Below are positions 1 through 19,419 of a DNA stretch of 19,830 nucleotides, piece after piece. The notes below the pieces were generated by a model, which worked only from the letters and a program-made list of their open reading frames with translations, ran no database searches and had not been told where the DNA came from. The DNA comes from a virus. Taxonomy: Duplodnaviria; Heunggongvirae; Uroviricota; Caudoviricetes. The translations under genes were made by a program, and so were the position numbers. The stretch lies in the IMG/VR virus record IMGVR_UViG_2537561977_000028; one strand, 5' to 3'. Numbering within the stretch: position 1 is the first letter of the stretch; every line of letters begins with the position of its first letter.

Positions 1-1214
1 GTGAAACTCAATGCCCGTCAAATAGACACAGCCAAGCCAAAAGAGAAGGCTTACAAGCTGGCCGATGGTGGCGGTTTGTATCTCTTGGTAAAACCTAATG
101 GAGGTAAATACTGGCGACTTAAATATCGTGTAGCTGGTAAAGAGAAGCTATTGGCACTAGGTGTTTATCCTGAGGTTACTCTAGCCGATGCTCGGGCAAA
201 ACGTGAAGATGCGAAAAGAGGTATCGCTGGTGGTATCGATCCGATGGAAGCGAAACGAGAGGAAAAGATTGCCCGGGAAACGCAGTTAAACAACACCTTC
301 AAAGATATTGCCCTTGAGTGGCACAGCAGCAAATTAAAAAATGGTCTGCTGGTTATGCTTCAGACATCCTCGAAGCCTTCAACAAAGATGTGTTCCCTTA
401 CATTGGCAAAAAACCCATCGCCGAAATCAAACCACTTGAACTTCTGAATGTGCTGCGTCGCATCGAGGGGCGCGGTGCTACAGAAAAAGCCAAAAAAGTG
501 AGGCAACGGTGCGGGGAAGTTTTCCGCTATGCAATAGTCACTGGTCGCGCAGAGTATAACCCTGCACCAGACCTTACTAGCGCGATGCAAGGCCATGAAT
601 CTAATCATTACCCTTTCCTTACAGCCAAAGAATTACCTGATTTTTTCAAGGCATTGTCCAGTTACTCAGGAAGCGCATTGGTTGTTATGGCGGCTCGTCT
701 ACTGATTATCACCGGCTTGCGGACTGGCGAACTACGTGGCGCATTATGGGATGAAATTGATTTCAACAAGGCTATCTGGGAGATACCCGCTTCACGTATG
801 AAAATGCGGCGGCCTCATATTGTGCCATTGTCTGAGCAGGCTCTTTCGCTTATTGGGAAGATTAGAGAAATAACAGGCAATTACCCTCTTATGTTTCCCG
901 GGCGCAATGATCCAAGGAAAACAATGAGCGAGGCCAGCATAAACCAAGTGTTTAAGCGCATTGGCTACGCTGGACGTGTAACTGGTCATGGGTTCCGGCA
1001 CACTATGAGTACGATTTTGCATGAGCAGGGCTATAACACCGCGTGGATAGAAACGCAGCTCGCTCACGTTGATAAGAACTCAATTCGTGGCACATACAAC
1101 CATGCGCAATATCTGGATGGAAGGCGGGAGATGCTTCAATGGTATGCCGACTATATGGATTCTCTCGAGCATGACGGAAATGTGGTGCATATGGTGTTTG
1201 AAAAACACGCATGA
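1..1214 (+). pseudogene. int: P4/CP4-57-type tyrosine integrase (IntA-like), reading frame broken by an apparent -1 frameshift
   Basis: Frame-1 ORF 1..447 carries a typical P4-integrase N-terminus (KLADGGGLYLLVKPNGGKYWRLKYR). Frame-3 ORF 318..1214 carries the catalytic half (LRTGELRGALWDEIDF, HGFRHT, LAHVDKNSIRGTYNH). The frames meet at an A6 run (336-341); one extra A would give a continuous protein reading WHSSKLKKWSAGYAS. The GTG at position 1 may be the true start, or the start lies just upstream of the window. Confidence 0.85.
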
Positions 1215-1642: not shown

Positions 1643-1846
1643 ATGGCTAATTACAATTCATTAATTCGTCTCTCTGAAGTTCAAAGGCGAACTGGTTATA
1701 GCAAAGCATGGATTTATCGTCTTATTAGTCAGGGGAGGTTCCCTAAACAGGTAAAAATTGGAAGTCGGGCAATTGCTTTTGTTGAGTCTGAAATAGATGA
1801 ATGGATTGAGAAGTGTATATTAGAATCTAGAGACGAGGTGGCCTGA
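1643..1846 (+). CDS. alpA: AlpA-family (prophage CP4-57 regulatory protein) helix-turn-helix transcriptional regulator, 67 aa
   Basis: Translation LIRLSEVQRRTGYSKAWIYRLISQGRFPKQVKIGSRAIAFVESEIDEWI is the canonical AlpA/Xis-like HTH pattern. Position right after the integrase is typical of P4-like elements. Confidence 0.88.
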   Translation: MANYNSLIRLSEVQRRTGYSKAWIYRLISQGRFPKQVKIGSRAIAFVESEIDEWIEKCILESRDEVA

Positions 1847-4806: not shown

Positions 4807-4920
4807 CCAACATCCAGCTCATTGAAGCGCAATGTCGCATCGAACAGGTTCAGACTGTTTTAGGGTTCTGGCTTGAAGGGGCCATCCCCATGAAGTGGTC
4901 AACAAAAACTGGCCACCGAG

Positions 4921-6068
<1,148 letters not shown>

Positions 6069-6269
6069 TATGGCACCTGTGTTGTTCTGAGGTGAGCATA
6101 TCACCTCTGTTCAGGTGGCCAAATTCAGTAAACCACTTCACCAGCAACAGAGACAAGTTAATGATTGGCGCGGTTATGTCACTGCTCAATGGCGTACCAG
6201 AAGCTATTCAGGAAGCAGACGAATTGTTGGGCAAATATGAGTTACAGAATCATTCAGGCGAGGCGAAAC

Positions 6270-7224: not shown

Positions 7225-7588
7225 AAATGCAGAAATGGCGCTTAGCTCCGCAATCGGAGAGCAGGTGGCAAAGATTGCTGGTGCTGTGTGGATTCATAAC
7301 CTTCATTCTACTGGTGAAGAGAAAATGGCAATTCAGACGCCAGAGGGACGCACCATTACTACATCTCTGAAGCCGTCAGATGTTTGTGATCTGATTTGCG
7401 CATTCATGTACCCAGCAATGAGGACTGTCCACGGCGATAAGTGGAAACTTGCGACAACCGCTGAATTTGATATGTGGCTAAACAATGATGGCATGCTGAC
7501 TGATTACGGAATAACCAAGTGGCAGATGCTGGTTAGCCATATCGCAAACGCTATAGACCACGTGGGGTACGGTGATGCGAAACATTGA
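7217..7588 (+). CDS. Hypothetical protein, 123 aa
   Basis: Plus-strand ORF overlapping the primase start by 17 nt. Confidence 0.55.
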   Translation: MRENAEMALSSAIGEQVAKIAGAVWIHNLHSTGEEKMAIQTPEGRTITTSLKPSDVCDLICAFMYPAMRTVHGDKWKLATTAEFDMWLNNDGMLTDYGITKWQMLVSHIANAIDHVGYGDAKH

Positions 7589-10331
7589 TCTTATCCGTCA
7601 GGTTATCAGTGCGTCTGAAAACAACTGGCCTCATGTGCTGGGCTGCCTGAACATAAATGTCCCTGACTCTCCGCGCCGTCATGCTCCCTGCCCTGCATGT
7701 GGGGGCAAAGATCGATTCCGGTTCGATGACAACGGGCGCGGTAGCTTCATCTGTAATCAGTGCGGCGCTGGTGATGGGCTGGATTTAATTAAACGCGTAA
7801 ATAACTGCGACACAACAGAGGCGGCGCTTCTTGCCGCTGATGTTCTGGGTATTGATTACCGGACAACGGAAACACCAGAAGCCACCAGCCAGAAACGGGA
7901 ACAACTGGAAACCGAGCGCCAGCGACGCGAACAGGAGCGCCTGAAAAGGGCAGAGAAGGACGAACAACAAAGACGGGATACGTTTTCCCGTCAGTTTGAT
8001 GACATGCGCAGAAAGGCTGTAAACGGCAAATCTGATTATCTGGTTGCGAAAGGGGTAGGTGATTTTACATTCCCCGTGTTGCCCGATGGATCTCTGTTGC
8101 TGGCGCTGGTGGATAAATCCGGCGCAGTCACAGCAGCACAGACTATTACCTCACATGGTGAAAAAAGACTCCTGACAGGTTCAGCAAAGCGGGGGGCATA
8201 TCACGCCATAAACGCACCAGAAACAACACAGAGCATCTTAATCGCAGAAGGGCTGGCAACGGCATTATCTGCCCATTTAATTCGTCCAGAGGCGCTGACA
8301 GTGGCGGCGATTGATGCCGGGAACCTGTTATATGTCGCCCAGGTACTGCGGGATAAATATCCATCAGCACAAATCATCATTGCTGCGGATAACGACCACA
8401 GCGAAGGAAGACAAAACACGGGGAGAATAGCAGCAGAAAAAGCAGCTTTATCTGTTTCTGGATGGGTGGCATTACCCCCCACAGATCACAAAGCAGACTG
8501 GAATGATTACCACCAAAAACACGGCATTAAATGCGCCACAGAAGCGTTCAATAAGTCAATGTACCAACCACAGGGTAATGGCGTGAAACAGGAGCCACAG
8601 ACCATTGAGGGAAGCGATTTTAAGGTTATGGATACCGACCCACTGAAACCAAGAATAGAAAGCCGCGAGGATGGTATTTATTGGGTATCTCCGAGAGCTG
8701 ACAGCCAGAGTGGAGAAATCATCAATAACGAAAGCTGGTTATGTTCTCCGTTAAGCGTTATCGGTACTGGCAGAGACGATAAAGACCAGTATCTCATTCT
8801 TCGCTGGCTGTCGTTTGGTTCTGAAACGCCGACAACCGCTGCCATTCCACTGGCTGATATTGGTGAACGTGAAGGATGGCGCACACTTAAAGCTGGTGGG
8901 GTAAATGTCACGACCAAAAGCAGCCTCAGAGCAATACTGGCAGACTGGCTACAACGCAGTGGCTCTCGTGAATTGTGGCGTGTTGCTCATGCCACTGGCT
9001 GGCAATGCGGAGCGTACATCATGCCTGATGGGGAAATCATCGGAACACCTGAAAATCCTGTGCTGTTCAGCGGGAGAAGCTCAGCCGCAGCCGGATATAC
9101 CGTCTCAGGGAGCGCGAAAAGCTGGCGTGATAACGTGGCGCGTCTGGCCTTTGGTAACTATTCAATGATGACCGGGATCGGCGCAGCACTGGCAGCGCCA
9201 TTGATTGGGCTGGTGGGCGCTGACGGGTTCGGCATTCATTTCTATGAGCAGTCGAGCGCAGGTAAGACCACCACGGCAAACGTGGCGAGCAGCTTATACG
9301 GCAACCCTGATTTACTGCGGCTGACGTGGTACGGAACCGCGCTGGGGCTGGCAAATGAAGCCGCCGCCCACAATGACGGACTAATGCCGCTTGATGAAGT
9401 TGGTCAGGGCGCTGATCCTGTCAGTGTTTCACAGTCTGCCTATGCGTTATTTAACGGTGTAGGGAAACTGCAAGGCGCTAAAGATGGTGGAAACCGGGAT
9501 CTAAAACGCTGGCGTACAGTGGCAATCAGCACTGGAGAAATGGATTTAGAAACATTTATCGCTACTTCCGGGCGAAAAACCAAAGCCGGGCAACTGGTGC
9601 GACTGCTGAATATTCCGTTGAGTAAAGCAGTACGCTTTCACGATTACCAGAACGGAAAACAGCACGCAGACGCACTGAAAGACGCTTACCAGCATCACCA
9701 CGGCGCAGCCGGGCGTGAGTGGATTAAATGGCTGGCAGACCACCAGCAACAGGCAATTAAAACTGTTCGTGACTGCGAAAGCAGATGGAGAAGTCTGATC
9801 CCATCCGATTATGGTGAGCAGGTTCACCGTGTAGCCGCGCGATTTGCCATTCTGGAGGCCGCATTGCTGTTAGGCGAGGTTGTAACAGGCTGGGATGCTC
9901 AGACATGCCGTGATGCGATACAGCACAGCTATAACGCATGGTTGCGCGAGTTCGGCACAGGTAACAAAGAACATCAGCAGATTATTGAACAAACGGAGGC
10001 ATTTCTTAATGCCTATGGGCTTAGCCGTTTTGCACCATTTCCATACAGCCCGGCAGATTTGCCCATCAAAGATTTGGCCGGATACCGTCAGCGTGGAGAA
10101 CATGACGAAAGCCCAATGATTTTCTACACATTCCCGGCCACATTTGAAAAGGAGATCGCATGTGGTTTCAACGCAAAACAGTTTGCTGAAGTGTTGAAAA
10201 AAGCCGGGATGCTAACCCCACCAAACAGCGGTCGTGGATACCAAAGAAAATCACCACGTATTCAGGGACGACAAATAAACGTTTATGTACTCAATTACCA
10301 GCCAGGAGATTATAACTCATCTGAAGAATGA
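7572..10331 (+). CDS. P4-alpha-like replicative primase-helicase (zinc ribbon + TOPRIM primase + C-terminal P-loop NTPase of DUF927/D5 type), 919 aa
   Basis: Cys4 zinc ribbon CPACGGKDRFRFDD...FICNQCG; TOPRIM motifs ILIAEGLATAL and IIIAADND; P-loop-like FYEQSSAGKTTT. Likely start is the ATG at 7575 (the track starts at GTG 7572). Confidence 0.85.
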   Translation: MMRNIDLIRQVISASENNWPHVLGCLNINVPDSPRRHAPCPACGGKDRFRFDDNGRGSFICNQCGAGDGLDLIKRVNNCDTTEAALLAADVLGIDYRTTETPEATSQKREQLETERQRREQERLKRAEKDEQQRRDTFSRQFDDMRRKAVNGKSDYLVAKGVGDFTFPVLPDGSLLLALVDKSGAVTAAQTITSHGEKRLLTGSAKRGAYHAINAPETTQSILIAEGLATALSAHLIRPEALTVAAIDAGNLLYVAQVLRDKYPSAQIIIAADNDHSEGRQNTGRIAAEKAALSVSGWVALPPTDHKADWNDYHQKHGIKCATEAFNKSMYQPQGNGVKQEPQTIEGSDFKVMDTDPLKPRIESREDGIYWVSPRADSQSGEIINNESWLCSPLSVIGTGRDDKDQYLILRWLSFGSETPTTAAIPLADIGEREGWRTLKAGGVNVTTKSSLRAILADWLQRSGSRELWRVAHATGWQCGAYIMPDGEIIGTPENPVLFSGRSSAAAGYTVSGSAKSWRDNVARLAFGNYSMMTGIGAALAAPLIGLVGADGFGIHFYEQSSAGKTTTANVASSLYGNPDLLRLTWYGTALGLANEAAAHNDGLMPLDEVGQGADPVSVSQSAYALFNGVGKLQGAKDGGNRDLKRWRTVAISTGEMDLETFIATSGRKTKAGQLVRLLNIPLSKAVRFHDYQNGKQHADALKDAYQHHHGAAGREWIKWLADHQQQAIKTVRDCESRWRSLIPSDYGEQVHRVAARFAILEAALLLGEVVTGWDAQTCRDAIQHSYNAWLREFGTGNKEHQQIIEQTEAFLNAYGLSRFAPFPYSPADLPIKDLAGYRQRGEHDESPMIFYTFPATFEKEIACGFNAKQFAEVLKKAGMLTPPNSGRGYQRKSPRIQGRQINVYVLNYQPGDYNSSEE

Positions 10332-10356: not shown

Positions 10357-10467
10357 GTTGGTTCAGTTGGTTCAGTTGGTTCAATTTGTAAAGAGTATTG
10401 TTTTATAAGGATTTTATTCTTTTTATTGAACCAACACTGAACCAACAACACGGTATTTTGAACCAAC
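10357..10467. promoter_or_regulatory. Iteron cluster A (candidate replication origin): 3 tandem GTTGGTTCA, 43-bp AT-rich spacer, 3 inverted TGAACCAAC
   Basis: GTTGGTTCA at 10357-10365, 10366-10374, 10375-10383. AT-rich spacer 10384-10426. TGAACCAAC at 10427-10435, 10438-10446, 10459-10467. Lies directly after the primase gene. Confidence 0.65.
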
Positions 10468-10788: not shown

Positions 10789-10820
10789 TGCCACCAGCTA
10801 CTGAGCGGTGGCATTTTTTT
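10789..10820 (+). terminator. Rho-independent terminator candidate
   Basis: Stem TGCCACC / GGTGGCA (7 bp) with an 11-nt loop, followed by A + T7 (10814-10820). Confidence 0.6.
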
Positions 10821-10915
10821 GTGCTATTTGTTTCATATTTTGCAATTACGATGATGAATATTGCGATTTGTGAAACTATAATAACTGTTGTTTTATACAG
10901 TTCTAAGGGGGCGTT

Positions 10916-11077
10916 ATGGCTATTTCAGTAAAGCCGGTATTGATAAGTGAGAAGCAAATGGAAGCGATAAAGAAAATTCAGGAAGAGCAGCGTAAAAAAT
11001 CAGGAATTGGAGTAGCGCCAACTCTGCATGAAATTGCTCGAGGGTTAATAGATAAGGCGCTGGCAGGCTGTATGTGA
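10916..11077 (+). CDS. Small hypothetical protein, 53 aa (below the ORF-track cutoff); possible regulator
   Basis: ATG at 10916 preceded by AGGGGG. Translation MAISVKPVLISEKQMEAIKKIQEEQRKKSGIGVAPTLHEIARGLIDKALAGCM. Sits between the terminator and the cargo operon. Confidence 0.35.
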   Translation: MAISVKPVLISEKQMEAIKKIQEEQRKKSGIGVAPTLHEIARGLIDKALAGCM

Positions 11078-11093
11078 AAATGGATGGCATCGC

Positions 11094-11495
11094 ATGGAAC
11101 TAAAATTTATTGATAACCCTGTGCGATTACAGGCCTTTCTTAACGATCCTGGCAATACCGAAAATATTGTTGAGCCGGGGCACACGTACTACATCAAGCC
11201 TGATGCGGTATATCTCGGCATCTACGAAGGATTGGTGCTGGCTGGCGTTCATGAAGTGCGTAACTTCTGGCATAGCATTGTTGAATGCCATGCGGTGTAC
11301 GACCCCGGATTCCGTGGTGAATATGCACTGCAAGGGCATCGATTATTCTGCAAATGGCTTCTCGAAAACTCACCATTCCTTAACAGCATCACTATGGTTC
11401 CTGACACCACGAAATACGGACGGGCAATTATCCGTTTGCCCGTGTTGGTCACCTTGATGATGCTTATATCAGATGTGGTAAACCCGTCGGCGTAA
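11094..11495 (+). CDS. Hypothetical protein, 133 aa; first gene of the cargo operon
   Basis: Protein-like translation. The overlapping frame ORF 11110..11457 is Trp/Cys-rich and looks non-coding. Confidence 0.6.
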   Translation: MELKFIDNPVRLQAFLNDPGNTENIVEPGHTYYIKPDAVYLGIYEGLVLAGVHEVRNFWHSIVECHAVYDPGFRGEYALQGHRLFCKWLLENSPFLNSITMVPDTTKYGRAIIRLPVLVTLMMLISDVVNPSA

Positions 11496-11538
11496 CGCTT
11501 TATCAGTTAACTCGGCAACAATATAAGGAATTCAGCGA

Positions 11539-12216
11539 ATGTTAATTACCCATATAGCTCATAAACATCTCAATCGTGCCGTATACGAAAAAGGCGGTGA
11601 TGGTGGTGCCTCTAAAGCTCAGGCGAAGGCCCAGCAGCAGGCAATTGATTTGCAGCGCGAGCAGTGGAATACGGTGATGAATAATCTCAAGCCGTATGCA
11701 GAAGTCGGATTGCCTGCTTTACAACAACTACAAGGACTGATGACTCTGGAAGGGCAGAATAAAGCCGCGAATGATTTCTTTGGTTCTGGTTTATATAAAA
11801 CACAGGCAGATCAGGCCCGTTATCAGAACCTTGTCTCAGCAGAAGCTACCGGGGGGCTTGGCTCAACAGCTACCAGTAACCAGTTATCTTCCATTGCGCC
11901 CATGCTTTATAACAATTGGCTTAGTGGGCAAATGCAAAATTATGGAAACCTGCTAAATGTCGGGATGAATGCGGCATCAGGGCAGGCAACGGCAGGGCAA
12001 AACTACGCCAATAATACCGGACAACTCTTGCAGGGGCTTGGCGCTATTCGTGCAGGTCAGGCGCAGCAGCCATCCAGTCTTGCGCGTGGTATTGGTGGGG
12101 CAGCATCAGGCGCTTTAGCGGGTGCGCAACTTGGTTCCGTTGTTCCTGGAATAGGTACTGCGGCAGGCGCTATTGGTGGTGGGCTTATTGGTCTTGTTGG
12201 GGGGCTTGGATTCTAA
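11539..12216 (+). CDS. Gln/Ala-rich protein with Gly-rich hydrophobic C-terminus, 225 aa; virion-internal/ejection-protein-like
   Basis: AAGGA RBS about 8 nt upstream. C-terminus GIGGAASGALAGAQLGSVVPGIGTAAGAIGGGLIGLVGGLGF. Stop overlaps the next start (TAATG). Confidence 0.7.
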   Translation: MLITHIAHKHLNRAVYEKGGDGGASKAQAKAQQQAIDLQREQWNTVMNNLKPYAEVGLPALQQLQGLMTLEGQNKAANDFFGSGLYKTQADQARYQNLVSAEATGGLGSTATSNQLSSIAPMLYNNWLSGQMQNYGNLLNVGMNAASGQATAGQNYANNTGQLLQGLGAIRAGQAQQPSSLARGIGGAASGALAGAQLGSVVPGIGTAAGAIGGGLIGLVGGLGF

Positions 12217-13535
12217 TGGCGACATGGCAACTTGGCGGGCTGCCTAGCATGGCACCGCAAAATGATAATGCTCCTCGTTCTTCCGTTCCTCAGCCTGTGC
12301 AGTATCAGCAGCAGCCAAACGTAGGTTTAATGGCGCTACAGGGGCTAAGAGGCGTTGCTGAGATTAATCAGCAGGCGCAAATTTCCCAGCAGCTAAAAGA
12401 ATATCAGGCACGGTTGGGTAGTGCGGTAGCTAATAATGATCGTGTTGGCGTGCAGAAGTTAATGGCCCAGTATCCCCAGTTTATGGCTGATTCTCAAAAA
12501 CAGATGGGATTCATTGATGCTGAGCAAAATCGGCAGACCGCTGACGCTGCCATGAATCTGCGTCTTGCGTCACAAACTGGAGATCCACTGACCATGCAGA
12601 AGGCCATTCAGCAGGCAAATCCAGTATTACAGCGATTTGGTCTTCCTGCTGAAGAGGTTTATCAGTCTTGGCAGAATGCCCCACAGGAATTCAACAGAAT
12701 CACTGACCTCATCCACCTCCATGCTGATCCAAATAGTTACTTTAGTGTTCAAGAGAAGCAGCAAGGGCAGAGTATTGCACAGCAGAACGCAGATACATCT
12801 GCATATAATGCTCAGGTTAATGCGGAACAGGGTAATCGGCGTCTCGATATGGAGCAGTTCAAAGTCCTATCCGATAACCAGCTACGCACGAGAGAAATGG
12901 TTCTGAAAGCACGACTTGGACGTGCTCAAAATGACATCGAGAGAGACAAGCTCAATGCTGAACTGAGCAAGGTACAGCAGGCGAAAGTGGAGAAGATGAA
13001 CGATAAAATTAATACTGTTGCAGGTAACATCGACTCCTTGAACTCTGCGCTTGAAGTGGGTCATGAACTGGCGGGAATTGTAGGGAAACATCCTTCGGCC
13101 GTTACCCGTTCGCAGAACTATAACCCCCTGACGCTGGGGTTTGGATTCCTTCCTGATGTAGCAGAAGACACACGAAGCCTACGCGCCAAAGCTGATGAAT
13201 ACAACCTAAAGGTTATTCTGCCTAGCCTCAAAGGGACTTTTGGCTCTAACCCAACCGAAGGGGAAAGGGCTGCCCTTATGCAATCTCAAAATGGCATTAA
13301 GTCAGCAACCAGCAATGAGGCATTTTTGCGAGAGTTGAATAAAGCGCAGGACGTAATTATTCGAATGCAGAAACGACAGATTGCCGGGCTCGGTATTCCT
13401 GTAACCAAATCTAAGGACGAAGAAACTGATACCAAAATGCTGTTGCAGGATCCTTCTCTGGTTAAGGATTATGTGACCGCACATGGCTATCTGCCGGAAA
13501 GTTACTATCAGGCAAAACTTAAGGGATGGCAATGA
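12216..13535 (+). CDS. Gln-rich coiled-coil protein, 439 aa; virion-internal/ejection-protein-like
   Basis: Long Q/A/N-rich heptad-like stretches (QQAQISQQLKEYQARLGSAVANN..., LDMEQFKVLSDNQLRTREMVLKARLGRAQNDIERDKLNAELSKVQQAKVEKMNDKIN). Overlaps neighbours at both ends. Confidence 0.7.
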   Translation: MATWQLGGLPSMAPQNDNAPRSSVPQPVQYQQQPNVGLMALQGLRGVAEINQQAQISQQLKEYQARLGSAVANNDRVGVQKLMAQYPQFMADSQKQMGFIDAEQNRQTADAAMNLRLASQTGDPLTMQKAIQQANPVLQRFGLPAEEVYQSWQNAPQEFNRITDLIHLHADPNSYFSVQEKQQGQSIAQQNADTSAYNAQVNAEQGNRRLDMEQFKVLSDNQLRTREMVLKARLGRAQNDIERDKLNAELSKVQQAKVEKMNDKINTVAGNIDSLNSALEVGHELAGIVGKHPSAVTRSQNYNPLTLGFGFLPDVAEDTRSLRAKADEYNLKVILPSLKGTFGSNPTEGERAALMQSQNGIKSATSNEAFLRELNKAQDVIIRMQKRQIAGLGIPVTKSKDEETDTKMLLQDPSLVKDYVTAHGYLPESYYQAKLKGWQ

Positions 13536-16252
13536 TGGCACAACTGACAGAAAAACAGAAAGCCTATTCCCGTCATCTCGATGAAAAATATGGTTTCCCA
13601 TCAGGGACGATGGAAACATTAGTTGGCAATGAATCTAGTGGTAACGGAAGTGCCGAGTCACCGAAAGGAGCTAGAGGATTTGCTCAACTGATGCCCTCAG
13701 TAATGAGTGATGCTGGTTATCGTGGAACAGATCCGCGCTCACTGCCATTTGAAAAGCAAATGGATATCGCAGCAAACCATCTCAATAAAGGAATGAAGCG
13801 ATTTGGTGATATAGGTATGGCATTGGCTGGGTATAATTCTGGCTATGCTCGTATTAATGCCGTAAGAAACGGTAAATCTACACTGCCAGATGAAACGGCT
13901 AATTACGTAAGTAAATTTGCAGATGCCGGAATAATCCCTGATGACAGTGAAATCTTGCAGTTTGCACAAACCAGTCAACATCGCAATCTTCAGCAGCCTG
14001 ACTACTCAGAGCTTGATAAAGAAATCTCTCAGGTGGGAGATATTTCTGCATGGGAAGCAAAACGTCAGCAATTTAAGAACATAGAAGCAGGACTACCAAC
14101 AGCCAGTTCATGGGAGCAGAAAAGAGCTCATTTTCTCGCCGATGAAAATGCCGGGGAACCGCAGCAGCAAGTAGCCAAGTCTAACCTTAATCCTGAGATG
14201 GAATATCTTTCGCCAGGACTGAAAGCTGCGCCAGAGCAGATGGCCAGAGGGATTGCTAATATACCGTTTGATGTAATGGACGCAGGCGTGGGGGTAGTCA
14301 ATGCGGCGCAATCAGCCGGAGCATGGGCAGCTCAGAAGCTTGGTGTGGGTGATGGTACATACACGCCCATATCACCTGTCTTTCGCCCAGTAGACCAACC
14401 TACAGATCCATACGCGCAGGCTGGTGAGCAGCTAGCACCTTACCTTATTACAGGATTAGGTGCAGGAAAGGCAGCTACCGCAGCTTCTTCAGTTGCCAAC
14501 GCTCCACGTGCTGAACGTGCGGCCACAAAGGTGGCTAGTATGTTGGCAGAAAACCTGCCAGGTACATTGGTGAACGCCCAAAAGAACGGGCAGATCAGCC
14601 CAGAAGACCTAGCAAAAGAGACAGGTATTGGCCTAGCAGGATCGCTAGGAGCACGCGCTTTAATAAAGAGCGGACAGACAGCCAGTGACGTAATGCGAGA
14701 TGTATTGCGGAGTAATACAAATCAATCAAGCTATGTGTTAGGGGCAGCAAATACTCTGGAAACCGCCAATGATGTATCGAAAGCAGCGCGTTCTGCCGTA
14801 GGCCGAGAGCATATCGCATCGCAGGCATCAAACGTCAGAGATGATGTCGCTAAGGCGGCGAAAATCACTGGTATTAATATCAACACCCTGACGCCTGGAA
14901 TGCGCTCAGGTAGTCGTGGAATTGCCCAAGCAGAAGGTGTTCTGGCATCAACTCCTGGGAATGTTCAGGATGCTCACCTTACGGCCTTCAATGAAATATC
15001 CTCAAAGTTGAATAAGCAGTTGTCTGATTTCGGTGCTGATTCTGGAAGCGCATCAGAAAAAAGCGCAGCAATTAAAGAGCGCATCATCGCGAGCCTCAGT
15101 GATATGAAAACAGCAGAGAATATGGCATGGGCAGAACTGCGAAGCACGATGCCACGCGAAAGGATGAAAATGAGTAATGGGATGGCTGTCGTCCAAGCAG
15201 AAAAAGCAGCCAATGTTCCACTCAGCCCGGAGATGAAACAGTTTCAGGCTGCCAACAACCAAGGTGGCGGCATAACCTTCGACGGGATGAAGGCATGGCG
15301 TGCTAAGTTTGCTGATGCTGAACAAGCAAACACCCGGGCAGGTAAGGCCAATGCCGCCCGGGTTGCCGGAGAAATGCGCAGAGCTATCACTGATGACATG
15401 CGCATCATGGCTGAAAAAGGAAACTTCCTCACAGAATGGCAGAAAGCTAACGATCTCTCTAAAAGTTACATTATCGCCAAACAAAATGCCGAATCTGTTT
15501 TTGGTCGAGATCTCGCATCAGACGCTATGGTAAGAAAAGGTGCCGATACGCTTAAGGCATCCGCAAACACTGGAACGGGAGCTTTTCACCGTCTTATCTC
15601 CGCGCAGCCGGAAGCAGAACGCCAACCAGCAATAGCATCTATTCTTCAGCATGCTGTGGCGCAGGGAGAGAAGGGAGGAATCGGTGAAGAGTCTGGTATC
15701 CAGTATTTTGCCAAGCTCATGACCCAGCAGAATGTAAACGCCATCAGTCGTCATGCGCCAGATCTCGGTAGAATGATGAAAGAGTTCGGTGTACTCGCTA
15801 AAGCCAGCACCAGACCGCAGCGATACGTAGAGCGCACGGGAAGAACAACTGAGGCTCTCAAAACGCTCGATTCAGGCCTTCCAAAGATCGTCGGCGTGAT
15901 TATGAACGGAGTTCAACAGTCAGGTGCGATCGCTGGAGGCTTTGGCGGTGGTGTAATTGGTTCGATTAGTGGTTTGGTTGCTGGTGGCGCGCTGAGAAAT
16001 ACTGTGGCTAAGATTGGGGCGACAAGAAGTGGTCGATATGCGATAGAGAAAGCCGTTCAGGAAGCTACAAAAGCAGTGCGCGCAGGGGCATCACCAGCAG
16101 CGATCGCCGCAGCAGAGAAACGATTTTCGGCCAATAAAATTGCCATGAAAGCAATTCGTGATGCCGTTGGGGCTGAAGAATTCGTGAAACTGACAAGGGC
16201 CGGGATTGTAGCTACCCTCAGTGGCATGAAAGATGTTAGCGAATGGGAATAG
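13526..16252 (+). CDS. Large protein with N-terminal lytic transglycosylase (SLT) domain, Ala/Gln-rich central region and Gly-rich hydrophobic C-terminal segment, 908 aa
   Basis: SLT family-1 motifs: catalytic E-S in LVGNESSGNGSAESPKGARGFAQLMP and the AYNxG-type motif ALAGYNSGYARINAV. C-terminal GAIAGGFGGGVIGSISGLVAGGAL. Real start may be the ATG at 13532 or 13535, which are better spaced from the AAGGGA. Confidence 0.75.
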   Translation: MAMMAQLTEKQKAYSRHLDEKYGFPSGTMETLVGNESSGNGSAESPKGARGFAQLMPSVMSDAGYRGTDPRSLPFEKQMDIAANHLNKGMKRFGDIGMALAGYNSGYARINAVRNGKSTLPDETANYVSKFADAGIIPDDSEILQFAQTSQHRNLQQPDYSELDKEISQVGDISAWEAKRQQFKNIEAGLPTASSWEQKRAHFLADENAGEPQQQVAKSNLNPEMEYLSPGLKAAPEQMARGIANIPFDVMDAGVGVVNAAQSAGAWAAQKLGVGDGTYTPISPVFRPVDQPTDPYAQAGEQLAPYLITGLGAGKAATAASSVANAPRAERAATKVASMLAENLPGTLVNAQKNGQISPEDLAKETGIGLAGSLGARALIKSGQTASDVMRDVLRSNTNQSSYVLGAANTLETANDVSKAARSAVGREHIASQASNVRDDVAKAAKITGININTLTPGMRSGSRGIAQAEGVLASTPGNVQDAHLTAFNEISSKLNKQLSDFGADSGSASEKSAAIKERIIASLSDMKTAENMAWAELRSTMPRERMKMSNGMAVVQAEKAANVPLSPEMKQFQAANNQGGGITFDGMKAWRAKFADAEQANTRAGKANAARVAGEMRRAITDDMRIMAEKGNFLTEWQKANDLSKSYIIAKQNAESVFGRDLASDAMVRKGADTLKASANTGTGAFHRLISAQPEAERQPAIASILQHAVAQGEKGGIGEESGIQYFAKLMTQQNVNAISRHAPDLGRMMKEFGVLAKASTRPQRYVERTGRTTEALKTLDSGLPKIVGVIMNGVQQSGAIAGGFGGGVIGSISGLVAGGALRNTVAKIGATRSGRYAIEKAVQEATKAVRAGASPAAIAAAEKRFSANKIAMKAIRDAVGAEEFVKLTRAGIVATLSGMKDVSEWE

Positions 16253-16402
16253 ACGCTCTAACTAACAAAACCATAATAGCCAAGGACGGCATACTGATAT
16301 TGAGCCAACTATCAAAATTCCATATCACATTACGAGCCTGTGGCTTACATTCGCTTACAGTGATGATAATTTATAACCACGCAATTCTTAGGTGAGATTA
16401 TC

Positions 16403-17101
16403 ATGATTAAAAATCTTCTTTTAATATTATCCCTGTCATTATTGGCTGGATGCGTACAAAAACCGTTAGTAACGGTCAATGCTTTATCTTCCGGGCAATC
16501 TGTCGGTAAGAAGTTCTTGATCATCCCCGCAAGCCAAGAACTTTGGAACACCAAACAGATTGAATACACTCAAATAGCTACGGTAGTAGCCGCCAGTTTA
16601 TCAAGCCAAGGATATACACAAGTTAAAGATGAAAAATTGGCTGACCAGGTAATTCTCTTGAACTTTTTGAGAAGCGGGGCCATTTCAAATACTCGTAATG
16701 TAACCATCCCAATATACGGGCAAACTGGTGTGAGCTCAGCAACAACGTACGGAAACTCGAACACCACGTTCAATAGTTATGGTGGTGGCTACGGTACAGC
16801 TAATACCACTGGAACGGCAACAACAGTTTATACGCCTACTTATGGAATTACTGGCGCGTATAACACAACTGTGACGGACACGTTCTACGGCGCAGGGGTG
16901 ATACTCCAGTCGTTTGATGCCAAGGCCTATCTCAATAATAGGCAGATTAATATGTTATGGAAAGTTGGTAGCTCAGTCGTCTCGCAACAGTCTGATGGAA
17001 TTGCTGATTACAAGGGGTTGGCGAGAATAGCCGCTAGCTATGCCGGGAAAAATACAGAAGGTGATATAACTTTTAATGTTGACCCTAAAGCACCAAATTA
17101 A
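16403..17101 (+). CDS. Lipoprotein, Thr/Gly/Asn/Tyr-rich, 232 aa
   Basis: Signal peptide with lipobox MIKNLLLILSLSLLAG-C. GGTGAG 6 nt before the ATG. Low-complexity central region TTYGNSNTTFNSYGGGYGTANTTGTATTVYTPTYG. Locally AT-rich compared with its neighbours. Confidence 0.7.
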   Translation: MIKNLLLILSLSLLAGCVQKPLVTVNALSSGQSVGKKFLIIPASQELWNTKQIEYTQIATVVAASLSSQGYTQVKDEKLADQVILLNFLRSGAISNTRNVTIPIYGQTGVSSATTYGNSNTTFNSYGGGYGTANTTGTATTVYTPTYGITGAYNTTVTDTFYGAGVILQSFDAKAYLNNRQINMLWKVGSSVVSQQSDGIADYKGLARIAASYAGKNTEGDITFNVDPKAPN

Positions 17102-17108
17102 CTAATAA

Positions 17109-17129
17109 GCCCGGTACGCCGGGCATTTT
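17109..17129 (+). terminator. Rho-independent terminator candidate after the lipoprotein gene
   Basis: GCCCGG-TACG-CCGGGC hairpin followed by ATTTT, 8 nt after the stop codon. Confidence 0.55.
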
Positions 17130-17244
17130 GCCCCCTATTATTCATGAATCGCTTTTTCTAGAAGGTATGCGACAAACGTTAAGTGACATTGCCTACACAT
17201 TCGGGGCGGGATTTCAAATCCGCTCCCAGTTGATGGGGCCGTTA

Positions 17245-17614: not shown

Positions 17615-17638
17615 ATCGACAGCATACACATTGGATAT

Positions 17639-17860
17639 TCATTTTGTGACCAATGCGATAAGTAGCGGGATAAGAATTGATAAAATCAACAGGCCGATGA
17701 TCCACTTTTGATTTTCACTGGCCTTATCTCTATTTTCATCCATCTTATCAATAATTCGACGCTCCAAGCCGTGCATATCACCGCGAATGGCAATCATCTC
17801 ATTGCGAACATCCGAGAAGTGGTTGGCTTGATGTTCAATGTGTGGCGTTCTGCCTTTCAT
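17639..17860 (-). CDS. Small tail-anchored membrane protein, 73 aa (XhlA/holin-like architecture)
   Basis: Charged N-terminal region plus a single C-terminal transmembrane segment (WIIGLLILSILIPLLIALV). GAGGA RBS upstream on the minus strand. Family name is a guess. Confidence 0.5.
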   Translation of the reverse strand: MKGRTPHIEHQANHFSDVRNEMIAIRGDMHGLERRIIDKMDENRDKASENQKWIIGLLILSILIPLLIALVTK

Positions 17861-17939
17861 TCCTGATCCTCACCTATCGTCACCACCTGCTGGTGTATAA
17901 AGGTATTGGCCCAAGCAGCTTTCCAATGGGCACTCATGT

Positions 17940-18395
17940 TTATACGCTGACCTTACAATCAATCACCGCTTTTAACTTTTCAGCATTGCTTCCCTGACGC
18001 TTCCACGCGCTGTAAATATCTTTATCCCACGCTTTACCAGCTTTTGTTTGATAGCCTGCTTCATTGATCCGTTCAGCTATCACACGCCCATTATCAAATC
18101 CCTGTCGGATGGTATCGGCAATGATCTTTATAACTGCCGTTTCGTTATATGGCTTTGGTGGGATGTTCGGCTTTCCGGCAATAAGCGACGCAGCGGCTTT
18201 TTCCATGCGCTCCACCAGCCCAAGCATTCGTGAATCAATAGACTTTTCCGGCTGTCCCAGCTTCATGCGAATCGCATCAACAAGCCAGGAGGTTTTATCC
18301 CCTCCAGAAGCGAGAACAGACCGATTAAACTCATCCTGCAATTCAGATGGGATGCGGAACGCGACCAGATTAGATTTGCTCATTGCAAAGACCAT
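17940..18395 (-). CDS. Ribbon-helix-helix (Arc/CopG-like) N-terminal domain protein, 151 aa
   Basis: N-terminus SNLVAFRIPSELQDEFNRSVLASGGDKTSWLVDAIRMKL has the RHH beta-strand/helix pattern. Co-directional with the downstream membrane-protein gene. Confidence 0.55.
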   Translation of the reverse strand: MVFAMSKSNLVAFRIPSELQDEFNRSVLASGGDKTSWLVDAIRMKLGQPEKSIDSRMLGLVERMEKAAASLIAGKPNIPPKPYNETAVIKIIADTIRQGFDNGRVIAERINEAGYQTKAGKAWDKDIYSAWKRQGSNAEKLKAVIDCKVSV

Positions 18396-18497
18396 ATCAG
18401 TGAGTAATATCCATACAGTATACCACTGTATAACACTGTTATACGCTCAAATATCAGCCAGAAAATAACGGACCAATCACAAAGCTATCGCTGTGTT

Positions 18498-18627
18498 GTT
18501 GGTTCAGAGCTGGGCTGTGTTGGTTCAAAATGAGTTGATGTTGGTTCAATATTTCAGAAAAAACACAATAAAAACAACGATATTTACAAATTGAACCAAC
18601 TGAACCAACTGAACCAACTGAACCAAC
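18498..18627. promoter_or_regulatory. Iteron cluster B: 3 spaced GTTGGTTCA, 43-bp AT-rich spacer, 4 tandem TGAACCAAC; inverted copy of cluster A
   Basis: GTTGGTTCA at 18498-18506, 18519-18527, 18540-18548. AT-rich spacer 18549-18591. TGAACCAAC at 18592-18600, 18601-18609, 18610-18618, 18619-18627. Its reverse complement aligns with cluster A. Confidence 0.65.
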
Positions 18628-18663
18628 ACCTTTTTGCTTATCTATATAATCTGAGAGGCAGAA

Positions 18664-18951
18664 ATGATAAGGGACAGGAAAGCTGAAGAGCTGGAGTCAA
18701 AAGGGCTATACCGGAGAGTTGCCGCACGATGGGCAGAAGTCATGATGCTGGCAGATGGCGATAAAGAACGTGAACATGCAGCAAACAGACGCTCTGAATG
18801 TATCCGTAAGGCGGCACGCCCACCAGCAACTACAGACAGATTCGGAGATTTAAGACAGGCAGTTAAGCGGACTCATTCGGCTCTTGGTATGGATGAGGAA
18901 GCGAGAGGGTACTTCAGGCGTTATCGCGATAAAGATTGCCAGAGACAGTAA
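18664..18951 (+). CDS. PerC-family transcriptional regulator-like protein, 95 aa
   Basis: N-terminus MIRDRKAEELESKGLYRRVAARWAEVMM matches my memory of PerC/Pch-family proteins common in P4-like islands. GAGAGG RBS; TATAAT at 18645-18650 just after the iterons. Confidence 0.55.
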   Translation: MIRDRKAEELESKGLYRRVAARWAEVMMLADGDKEREHAANRRSECIRKAARPPATTDRFGDLRQAVKRTHSALGMDEEARGYFRRYRDKDCQRQ

Positions 18952-19419
18952 TGCTCTCTCTGTTTTGGCAAATTACCCCTCACTTTGAAGGGATCGGAGC
19001 TATAAAAATGGTTTTAGGTACATTCCTCAAATTGAGGATTGTGGGAAAACCAATGGGTTAGGCTTTTCCCCCAATGGGGGTTTTCGAAAGAATCAATGGG
19101 TTAGTCCATCGTGCAAATTTGCACCCTGCCAGCCAACGCAATTTCTCGTTGGCGAAAATATCAGGTATTTACTGAACGAACGGTCTACCAGTCTGTTCAG
19201 TTACCAGTTGTACATGGCTGCTTTATGTGCAAATGGTGGTGAGAGAAAATTGTTTGGGGGTACTTTTGGGGGTATCTCCAAATACGCAATGGGGAAATGT
19301 CTTTATATATCAATGTATTTTTATTGTTTGTTTTGTTCCTATTATCGCATTTGTGCCATTGTAACCTTGGCAATTCATCAAAATACTGTTCTGACATCAG
19401 GCAGTGCAGGTGCAGCTAT

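Follow-up and report, generated by a model that had tools for sequence, protein, structure and literature searches.

We describe here a four-gene cassette at positions 11094-16252 of a 19,830-nt stretch of DNA (the window), filed as the Caudoviricetes virus record IMGVR_UViG_2537561977_000028. An initial annotation, made from the letters alone, had likened the four genes to the ejection proteins of podoviruses, while the element that carries them appeared to have no capsid, terminase or tail genes. We compare the cassette with the ejection operons of P22-like phages and of T7, the carrier with published satellites, and the position of the cassette with the same position in related islands. We will argue that the products are homologues of P22 gp14, gp7, gp20 and gp16, and that the carrier, a phage-inducible chromosomal island (PICI), may use them as a DNA-entry channel of its own.

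The ejection-protein cassette

The cassette consists of the following genes:

11094-11495, plus strand: gp14 homologue (DUF2824, head-assembly or ejection-protein helper), 133 aa, truncated
11539-12216, plus strand: gp7 homologue (ejection protein), 225 aa
12216-13535, plus strand: gp20 homologue (ejection protein forming the periplasmic conduit), 439 aa
13526-16252, plus strand: fusion of an SLT domain (nt 13574-13882) with a gp16 homologue (gp16-type part, nt 14069-16117), 908 aa

The four open reading frames (ORFs) lie exactly where they had been placed, and the RefSeq start of the last one is at the position equivalent to 13532. Family membership was assigned by Pfam and PHROG profile searches of the window ORFs, in which the Pfam cut-offs were exceeded for DUF2824, P22_gp7 and Inj_translocase. 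The first product matches DUF2824 (E 7e-45) and phrog_651, 'head morphogenesis' (E 2e-50), and the second matches P22_gp7 (PF25688, E 7e-73) and phrog_598 (E 3e-70). The third belongs to Inj_translocase (PF16928, the family of P22 gp20, E 2e-21) and to phrog_917/2534 (E 1e-41 to 3e-43), which is annotated as 'released from the phage upon host infection'. The 908-aa protein matches SLT (PF01464) over aa 17-119, with E 1e-12 and 48 bits against a cut-off of 21.3, and phrog_770, 'DNA transfer protein', over aa 182-864 (E 1e-120).

The N-terminal transglycosylase of the large protein, already suspected in the initial annotation, is thus found above the cut-off. The translation shows the catalytic pair E36-S37 together with GFAQLM and AGYNSG, and by the domain match and these Glu-Ser, GLMQ-like and AYNxG-like motifs the domain qualifies as a predicted family 1 lytic transglycosylase. 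A Gly-rich hydrophobic segment can be read from the translation at ca aa 795-832. Searches against the sequences of the PDB with the gp7, gp20 and SLT-gp16 homologues gave no match.

The gene order 14-7-20-16 is that of P22, and the gp7/gp20 and gp20/gp16 genes overlap. Because the profile matches identify all four products and the motifs are visible, the relation to the P22 set goes beyond a mere likeness of layout, and at the level of sequence profiles the four proteins are confirmed as true homologues of gp14, gp7, gp20 and gp16. The resemblance to the P22 block has in this way become a family assignment. The tight coupling that had been claimed holds for the two overlapping junctions, while that between the gp14 and gp7 genes has been lost in this copy. 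A 10-bp deletion at 11439 shifts the frame of the gp14 homologue, shortens it from 153 to 133 aa and removes a 7-nt overlap with the gp7 start. The 133-aa gene is therefore present at its expected position, but it is really a truncated 153-aa gene. The deletion is absent in the three copies compared, namely PF9285 (base by base) and TUM17668 and MP1 (intact 462-nt gene). The gp7, gp20 and gp16 genes are intact in the window copy.

The ejection operons of the P22-like phages Dewey, Huey, CUS-3, HK620, epsilon34 and Kapi1 share the protein families, the order and the overlapping starts with the cassette. Dewey, an ordinary P22-like phage with the order needle-14-7-20-16-tailspike, has identities of 23% for gp14, 54% for gp7, 26% for gp20 and 46% for gp16. 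Together with Huey, it gives the best phage matches of the large protein in tblastn (46% over aa 21-903, SLT domain included), and the gp16 part is ca 50% identical to those of CUS-3, HK620 and epsilon34 over aa 177-901 (46-52% with Dewey included, tblastn). Since ordinary P22-like phages such as Dewey and Huey carry SLT-gp16, the fusion is a natural phage variant, and no invention of the satellite. Kapi1, the helper phage of the published relative discussed below, has a gp14 that is 88% identical over 115 aa (97-100% over the central 80 aa), whereas the identity is 58% for gp7, 22-26% for gp20 and 20-24% for gp16. A sensitive blastn of the window and of MP1 against 31.4 kb of Kapi1 found similarity in genes 14-7 only.

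The location of the cassette differs from that in the phages. There, the block belongs to a full morphogenesis operon, in which tail-needle gene 26 and the tailspike gene flank it. On the island, it has neither of these neighbors and instead follows the satellite primase, the origin and a small ORF, with a lipoprotein gene and accessory genes behind it. Among 19 gp7 loci in other species, 16 were in a full portal-to-tailspike phage context, two were shorter fragments and one was a satellite. In this gp7-based scan, with one genome per species, satellite context was seen in Escherichia only; a scan of this kind is blind to satellites that have no gp7. E. coli O157:H7 has a P22-like prophage remnant at tRNA-Arg (locus L006, 13372-17520) with a partial needle gene, homologues of gp14, gp7 and gp20, and intS; the gp14 segment of this remnant and part of the window gp14 gene are 97% identical.

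The comparison with the T7 ejectosome, also made in the initial annotation, carries over in part. P22 gp7, gp20 and gp16 are treated in a review as counterparts of T7 gp14, gp15 and gp16 (PMC8954989), and the small-medium-large series, the function and the transglycosylase at the N-terminus of the largest protein (catalytic E37 in T7 gp16) all correspond. The island proteins are, however, much shorter, and the likeness does not extend to sequence-level membership. Only the SLT domain matches a T7-type family (phrog_342, 'internal virion protein with endolysin domain', aa 9-217), and the gp7 and gp20 homologues gave no match to T7-type families in the PHROG and PDB sequence searches.

The carrier island and its published relative

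The element around the cassette is a ca 19.5 kb island at the tRNA-Thr gene thrW, with int, alpA, antA, ash, a primase gene and iterons. Its main features are as follows:

1-1214, plus strand: tyrosine integrase (Pfam Phage_int_M, Phage_integrase), frame split into ORFs 1-447 and 318-1214
1643-1846, plus strand: AlpA-family regulator (Pfam Phage_AlpA, E 7e-20)
4891-6140, minus strand: IS3-family element, ca 1250 bp, with a 3-bp target duplication; transposase with rve domain, phrog_157 E 1e-122
7572-10331, plus strand: primase-helicase (Zn-ribbon, Toprim, DUF927; Pfam), satellite replication protein, phrog_1139 E 6e-179
10357-10467, no strand assigned: iteron cluster 1, 3 copies of GTTGGTTCA, an AT-rich spacer and 3 inverted copies
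18498-18627, no strand assigned: iteron cluster 2, 3 + 4 copies of TGAACCAAC in inverted groups
19337-19346, plus strand: attR core TCCTATTATC, right end of the island, the same core as published for EcCIMP1

Genes for AntA, DUF4222 and Ash were also found by profile searches upstream of the cassette. The 9-bp iteron TGAACCAAC occurs in 13 copies in the window, compared to 0.2 expected by chance, and the two clusters that had been noticed around the cassette are thus well founded. Cluster 1, which directly follows the primase gene, is the probable replication origin. Cluster 2 lies 8 kb away, adjoins a PerC gene (18664-18951) on its upstream side and contains one 9-bp unit more than in PF9285; it could be a second origin, or serve copy-number control or the regulation of PerC.

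Across the whole element, from int to attR, the Pfam and PHROG scans found no capsid, terminase or tail genes, in agreement with the first impression, and the cassette holds its sole virion genes. The same is true of the PF9285 island, which has proA-thrW and yagP-paoD as its flanks. In the window, homology to the chromosomal flank starts again at 19346, and a LysR pseudogene lies beyond the attR core. Because attR is in the window, the ends of the PF9285 island are known and no structural genes lie inside, the cassette is not part of an ordinary complete prophage whose structural genes lie outside the window, an alternative that had been raised at the outset; the island is bounded by thrW and by the yagP side.

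With a terminal integrase gene, AlpA, a primase gene with an adjacent origin, a size in the range of ca 10-20 kb and no structural or lysis module, the element is a PICI of the Gram-negative type, with the qualifications that int is frameshifted in the window copy and that the cassette itself consists of phage-derived virion protein genes. The initial annotation had spoken of a P4-type satellite. With P4-like satellites, the element indeed shares its integrase, AlpA-type regulator and P4-alpha-like primase-helicase, as well as insertion at a tRNA gene. However, psu, delta, sid and epsilon are lacking (no match among the ORFs scanned with Pfam and PHROGs, as had been noted by eye for the first three), and the helper is a podovirus of the P22-like kind instead of a P2-like myovirus (PMC11773190).

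Judged by its sequence, the window element is not new but a member of the EcCIMP1 family, published in 2025. EcCIMP1 is a 19,963-bp PICI of E. coli MP1, located at tRNA-Thr between proA and yagU (Pick, Stadel and Raivio, ISME J 2025, PMC11773190). The two have in common the thrW site, the att core TCCTATTATC, the backbone of int, alpA, antA, DUF4222, ash, primase, iterons and PerC, the four-gene cassette and the lipoprotein gene behind it, with 96-99% nucleotide identity over the shared parts (98.8% to the MP1 locus over 11.5 kb that take in the cassette, and 96.4% over 4.9 kb at the left). They differ in ash, which is intact in the window and a pseudogene in MP1, in the accessory region between 17619 and 19346, and in three features of the window copy, namely the IS3-family insertion, the frameshifted int and the 10-bp gp14 deletion.

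EcCIMP1 circularises and excises only when the P22-like podovirus vB_EcoP_Kapi1 (genus Lederbergvirus) is present, and its own int and alpA are required, the latter, equivalent to the window alpA, being the master activator; Kapi1 transduces the island at low frequency (PMC11773190). In that paper, the cassette is drawn as 'DNA transfer' genes, the similarity to DUF2824 is noted and a role in packaging is guessed (PMC11773190). The complete 14-7-20-16 ejection set was not recognised as such there, and our literature search found no paper on satellite-encoded podovirus ejection proteins as such. The only later paper found to mention EcCIMP1, a 2026 study of the MP1 transcriptome, does not name the EcCIMP1 genes that are up-regulated in lysogens and gives no detail of the cassette.

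The window copy shows several signs of decay. Compared to PF9285, one A is lost from an A run at ca 336, so that the integrase frame is split, which may reflect either a true pseudogene or a sequencing error in the homopolymer. The IS3-family element, which disrupts a small early-operon ORF ahead of the primase gene, is absent in PF9285 and MP1, where its flanks abut. With int frameshifted, an insertion sequence (IS) in place and gp14 truncated, the window island is probably immobile.

Selection, alleles and the slot behind the small ORF

In a survey of 5426 complete E. coli genomes, the full cassette (at least 80% coverage) was found in 72, the block of small ORF, gp14 and gp7 in 253, and the primase in 360. 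The ratio of nonsynonymous to synonymous substitution rates (dN/dS) between copies is ca 0.06-0.19 for gp14, ca 0.11-0.16 for gp7, ca 0.08-0.11 for gp20 and 0.2-0.35 for gp16, similar to the range for the primase (0.05-0.2), all of these values resting on small substitution counts. They indicate that the cassette is under purifying selection, and the low ratios together with the retention across genomes argue against inert cargo.

More can be learned from the variants. We examined five E. coli satellite variants that bear ejection-protein genes. All have gp20 and gp16, and two have no gp14 or gp7: the former pair forms the core of the cassette and the latter is optional. The SCU-316 island, at the yicC-dinD site, has the same gp14 and gp7, while its gp20 is identical for the first ca 40 residues and then only ca 20% identical, and its gp16 is an unrelated 701-aa allele with no SLT domain. 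In the MS110-3 and WP2-S18 islands, the small ORF is directly followed by gp20 and gp16. The last two genes are thus exchanged as a pair, with a breakpoint ca 40 codons into gene 20. Three types of gp16 occur in the satellites, with 17-20% mutual identity and best matches among sequenced phages of 46-66%. Through these exchanges, the cassette keeps its position behind the small ORF and a control region in several variants at two integration sites.

In P22, foreign sets of ejection proteins are functional, and gp16 and gp20 must be cognate, whereas gp7 is exchangeable. It is to gp16 and gp20 that escape from SieA has been mapped, and particles with non-cognate gp16/gp20 are non-infectious (PMC10461980). 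Because the satellite alleles follow the same rules, their pattern fits working parts rather than debris.

The cassette is preceded by two conserved features:

10797-10882, plus strand: cassette control region, with a terminator-like hairpin (10797-10823), the inverted repeat TTGCAAT-N13-ATTGCGA and a perfect TATAAT (10877-10882)
10916-11077, plus strand: conserved 53-aa ORF heading the slot, with homologues 51-87% identical ahead of cargo genes

Including the small ORF, the control region is 97% identical over the five satellite variants despite wholly different downstream genes, and the TATAAT has no usable -35 element. This conservation and the lone TATAAT suggest an activator- or repressor-controlled promoter. 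The AF2 model of the 53-aa ORF has an extended N-terminus and two helices (pLDDT 78), and Foldseek found no significant match to the model in the PDB. We suspect a ribbon-helix-helix fold, which is a guess, and the protein could be a regulator or a specificity factor.

Primases 80-83% identical to that of the window occur in Salmonella, Citrobacter, Klebsiella, Enterobacter, Pectobacterium and others, and in aligned loci of E. coli, Salmonella, Citrobacter, Klebsiella and Pectobacterium homologues of the 53-aa ORF precede the cargo. What follows in the slot varies. In Salmonella, Citrobacter and Klebsiella pneumoniae, it is a 106-108-aa protein and then a full-length tape-measure protein (phrog_1538, E 2e-153 to 4e-200), which in the Salmonella PICI is 64% identical to siphophage tape-measure proteins. 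The slots of these and of two other groups are located as follows:

L028 14376-17776: tape-measure locus, Salmonella PICI
L031 14457-17959: tape-measure locus, Citrobacter PICI
L034 14588-18157: tape-measure locus, Klebsiella PICI
L032 14854-16817: Pectobacterium PICI at the proA-tRNA site, small ORF and then a 594-aa 'lytic tail protein' (phrog_2013) with a C-terminal SLT domain
L038 7086-7930 and L039 7087-7931: two E. coli islands with a P4-family primase, small ORF and then a ca 220-aa M41-peptidase-like protein

Of the four types of cargo directly behind the small ORF, three are thus virion proteins that clear a path for DNA. The notion that a match to the small ORF is always followed by gp20/gp16 was dropped, as two of four sampled matches carry the M41-peptidase-like gene. 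In two Enterobacter islands, nothing comparable was found in the slot, and in a Klebsiella quasipneumoniae island a small-terminase gene follows the primase at some distance downstream.

Directly after gene 16 there is a further unit:

16250-17133, plus strand: moron-like unit, with a promoter-like site (16250-16277), a lipoprotein gene (16403-17101) and a terminator-like hairpin (17109-17133)

The product is a 232-aa lipoprotein with the lipobox LLAGC and a Gly/Thr/Tyr/Asn-rich middle. Compared to MP1, its gene has five synonymous and no nonsynonymous changes (dN/dS 0). No match was found in Pfam, PHROG or PADLOC and no phage homologue with tblastn; the PADLOC-DB search was equally negative for gp7, gp20, SLT-gp16 and six other ORFs. 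Three other variants also have small envelope proteins after gp16 (L005 18678-19067, L026 15731-16126, L027 18153-18590), two of them with 3-4 predicted membrane helices and one with a signal-like N-terminus (secreted). These three start with the same 15 residues, MIAILNNAKGRVGVN, beyond which they diverge, as in a cassette hotspot, and the gene in this place varies independently of the gp16 allele.

An envelope-protein gene directly after gene 16 occupies the position of sieA in P22-like prophages. The window product differs from P22 SieA in being a lipoprotein and not a multi-pass inner-membrane protein, and it has no similarity to a known family. EcCIMP1 raises the superinfection immunity of Kapi1 lysogens, and no known defence system was found on it (PMC11773190). 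As Pfam, PHROG and phage tblastn searches give no match for the lipoprotein, it is the position and the lipobox that point to an exclusion role and make it a candidate for the source of this immunity.

Possible functions of the cassette

We now turn to the question of what the cassette does. The initial annotation had offered, as one of three hypotheses, a satellite that supplies its own ejection proteins to a hijacked podovirus capsid. That this is a satellite of a podovirus is supported by the EcCIMP1/Kapi1 experiments (PMC11773190), while the role of the cassette is what we infer. The reading that we favor, with slightly more credence than doubt, is that the cassette is an ejection-protein module loaded into helper capsids, so that satellite DNA is delivered through a channel of its own. 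It builds on the homology, the satellite context, the selection and the allele pattern described above, and on the helper-dependent excision and transfer shown for EcCIMP1. Expression, incorporation into virions, delivery and selective benefit would then follow one another in this way.

During lytic growth of the helper, AlpA would turn the island on, which would excise and replicate from the iteron origin. The separately controlled operon of small ORF, gp14, gp7, gp20 and SLT-gp16 would be expressed, and the helper scaffolding protein would bring the satellite gp7, gp20 and gp16 into helper procapsids, with gp14 assisting. In P22, the scaffold recruits the ejection proteins via their N-terminal parts, each of them assembles independently, and they are dispensable for head assembly (PMC8402733). 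That P22 capsids accept similarly divergent foreign ejection proteins makes such a recruitment plausible. The satellite DNA would be packaged into these heads. After adsorption, the proteins would exit via the portal, the SLT domain would cut the peptidoglycan, and the matched gp20 and gp16 would form a channel for the passage of satellite DNA into the new cell. As the channel would be unlike that of the helper, transfer would no longer depend on which type of ejection proteins the helper has, and blocks directed at that type, for example SieA-like exclusion by recipient lysogens or inhibitors made in the donor, would not affect it. This escape from helper-type-specific entry blocks is the least certain step of the proposal.

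A parallel exists in the PLE satellites of Vibrio cholerae, which place their own tape-measure protein in virions, with 'chimeric tails' as the result, and depend on this protein for efficient transfer (2025 preprint, PMC11838301). PLE encodes a tape-measure protein, a chaperone and a baseplate hub, the delivery component being 19-41% identical to that of the helper, and the same preprint mentions tmp genes in other satellites (PMC11838301). As proposed for the island, the satellite swaps a genome-delivery part of the helper for its own divergent version, and the related PICIs carry tape-measure genes in the slot. The two cases differ in that PLE has a myovirus helper and uses tail proteins, whereas the island has a podovirus helper and would use internal head proteins that are ejected.

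It should be pointed out that a number of observations weigh against a delivery role. The transfer of EcCIMP1 by Kapi1 is very inefficient, with ca 5e3 particles/ml (PMC11773190), so the cassette does not ensure efficient transfer with this helper, and a Kapi1-like prophage is present in only 2 of 21 EcCIMP1 strains (PMC11773190). Since procapsids are built ahead of DNA packaging, helper virions would receive satellite proteins too, and mixed non-cognate gp16/gp20 sets could be harmful there. The blastn comparison with the 31.4 kb of Kapi1 found no shared helper-type late promoter or pac-like sequence on the island. The region beside the PICI primase gene is a hotspot of accessory and immune genes (PMC11364771), and the superinfection immunity that EcCIMP1 confers against Kapi1 would be explained by a role in defence. 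Finally, the ca 220-aa slot protein of the two E. coli islands is distantly similar to the M41 (FtsH/AFG3L2) protease domain and is thus a non-virion cargo. The size of the island, about half of a P22-type headful (19,963 bp for EcCIMP1 and 39,436 bp for Kapi1), is numerically suggestive and was dropped as evidence.

The most serious rival is defence, either because the homologues act against P22-like phages by joining their heads as non-cognate partners and spoiling the phage channel, or because the cassette together with the neighboring envelope protein keeps out incoming phage DNA (superinfection exclusion). This would explain the raised immunity of Kapi1 lysogens, given by an element on which neither the authors (PMC11773190) nor PADLOC recognised a defence system. 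The slot lies in an immune hotspot and the blocking of virion assembly is a common satellite defence (PMC11364771), non-cognate gp16/gp20 indeed yields non-infectious P22 particles (PMC10461980), and an envelope protein always stands after gene 16, in the position of sieA. However, EcCIMP1 leaves Kapi1 titres unchanged on induction and gives no protection to non-lysogens (PMC11773190); as titres are not lowered, a poisoning role in particular is argued against. A decoy would, moreover, need one protein only, whereas here a matched full-length gp20 and gp16 are present, often with gp14 and gp7, the SLT domain retains its catalytic motifs and low dN/dS values extend over the entire length. The operon lacks a consensus sigma-70 promoter, while the lipoprotein gene has its own, which suggests that a resting island expresses the envelope protein and not the cassette. 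Taking the two forms of this explanation together, we regard it as unlikely, though deserving to be kept in view.

P22 gp16 is described as taking part in the start of procapsid assembly, and a second rival, suggested by the EcCIMP1 authors, is that the genes redirect helper assembly or packaging toward the satellite and do not act in DNA delivery. The position downstream of the primase and origin is the usual site of PICI packaging genes (PMC11773190), the small-terminase gene of the Klebsiella relative lies beyond its primase, and the gp14 homologue, a member of a 'head morphogenesis' family, hardly differs from that of the helper over its central part. On the other hand, DNA-filled P22 heads can assemble without ejection proteins, which have no part in selecting the DNA to be packaged (PMC8402733). 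No terminase, pac-like sequence, capsid or scaffold homologue was found on the island, and the tape-measure and lytic tail proteins in the slot of the relatives are delivery parts. We consider this explanation improbable.

That the cassette is a captured P22-like prophage fragment without function, the last of the three original hypotheses, draws on the decaying window copy (gp14 frameshift, IS insertion, int frameshift), on another strain with IS elements within its SLT gene and on the needle-14-7-20 remnants of E. coli O157, but is very improbable for the family, in which the genes of other copies are intact and under purifying selection, the position behind the small ORF and control region is fixed in several variants at two integration sites, the alleles are unlike those of any sequenced phage (46-66% identity at most) and an even sample of 40 of the 671 matching E. 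coli records contained no match with the gene 20-16 part alone. The window copy itself is on its way to becoming a relic.

Returning to the ejection-channel proposal, a broader version of it can be formulated for the lineage. This group of PICIs would have a swappable 'genome-delivery' slot behind the small ORF, with which stolen virions are re-armed with the satellite's own DNA-entry channel to escape blocks aimed at that of the helper. The cargo would be gp20 and gp16 for podovirus helpers, a tape-measure protein and possible chaperone for siphovirus helpers, and the lytic tail protein in Pectobacterium. The blocks escaped would be SieA-type exclusion in recipient lysogens and the satellite's own inhibitors, and the envelope gene after gene 16 would encode the matching exclusion factor. 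We put this forward tentatively, with more doubt than confidence.

Satellites are known to reshape capsids, to redirect packaging and, in the Vibrio PLEs, to change tails; a satellite that brings its own proteins for taking DNA across the envelope of the recipient would add DNA entry to this list. If the proposal is correct, the 'chimeric tail' idea extends to podoviruses and to internal, ejected proteins, and DNA entry becomes a third battleground of satellite and helper beside capsid size and packaging. It would also offer a simple way into an old puzzle, the variability of genes 16 and 20, which in P22-like phages ranks with the highest of all virion genes. A ca 20-kb satellite devotes a quarter of its genome to ejection proteins, and the question why is sharpened by the allele pattern and the tape-measure parallels. 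Because EcCIMP1-type islands are frequent, occur in both commensals and pathogens and carry regulators such as PerC, their transfer range bears on gene flow in E. coli. Beyond what was published for EcCIMP1, new here are the purifying selection on the cassette, the core of gp20 and gp16, the three gp16 types, and the tape-measure and lytic tail cargo in the same slot elsewhere.

Some minor observations concern the surroundings of the islands. The right-hand accessory region (17619-19346) is strain-variable, with a Panacea-domain pair in PF9285, a second AlpA-like gene in MP1, and minus-strand ORFs of 73 and 151 aa with weak PHROG matches only in the window. In TUM17668, a P2-like prophage remnant with a retron Ec67-type reverse transcriptase adjoins the island (L001 1-15200), whose primase gene is a pseudogene. 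In Enterobacter asburiae (L035 1012-5528), a prophage end with Arc, Arc-like, P22-type antirepressor and tail-fibre assembly genes abuts the integrase gene of a related PICI, which suggests a tandem insertion at one att site.

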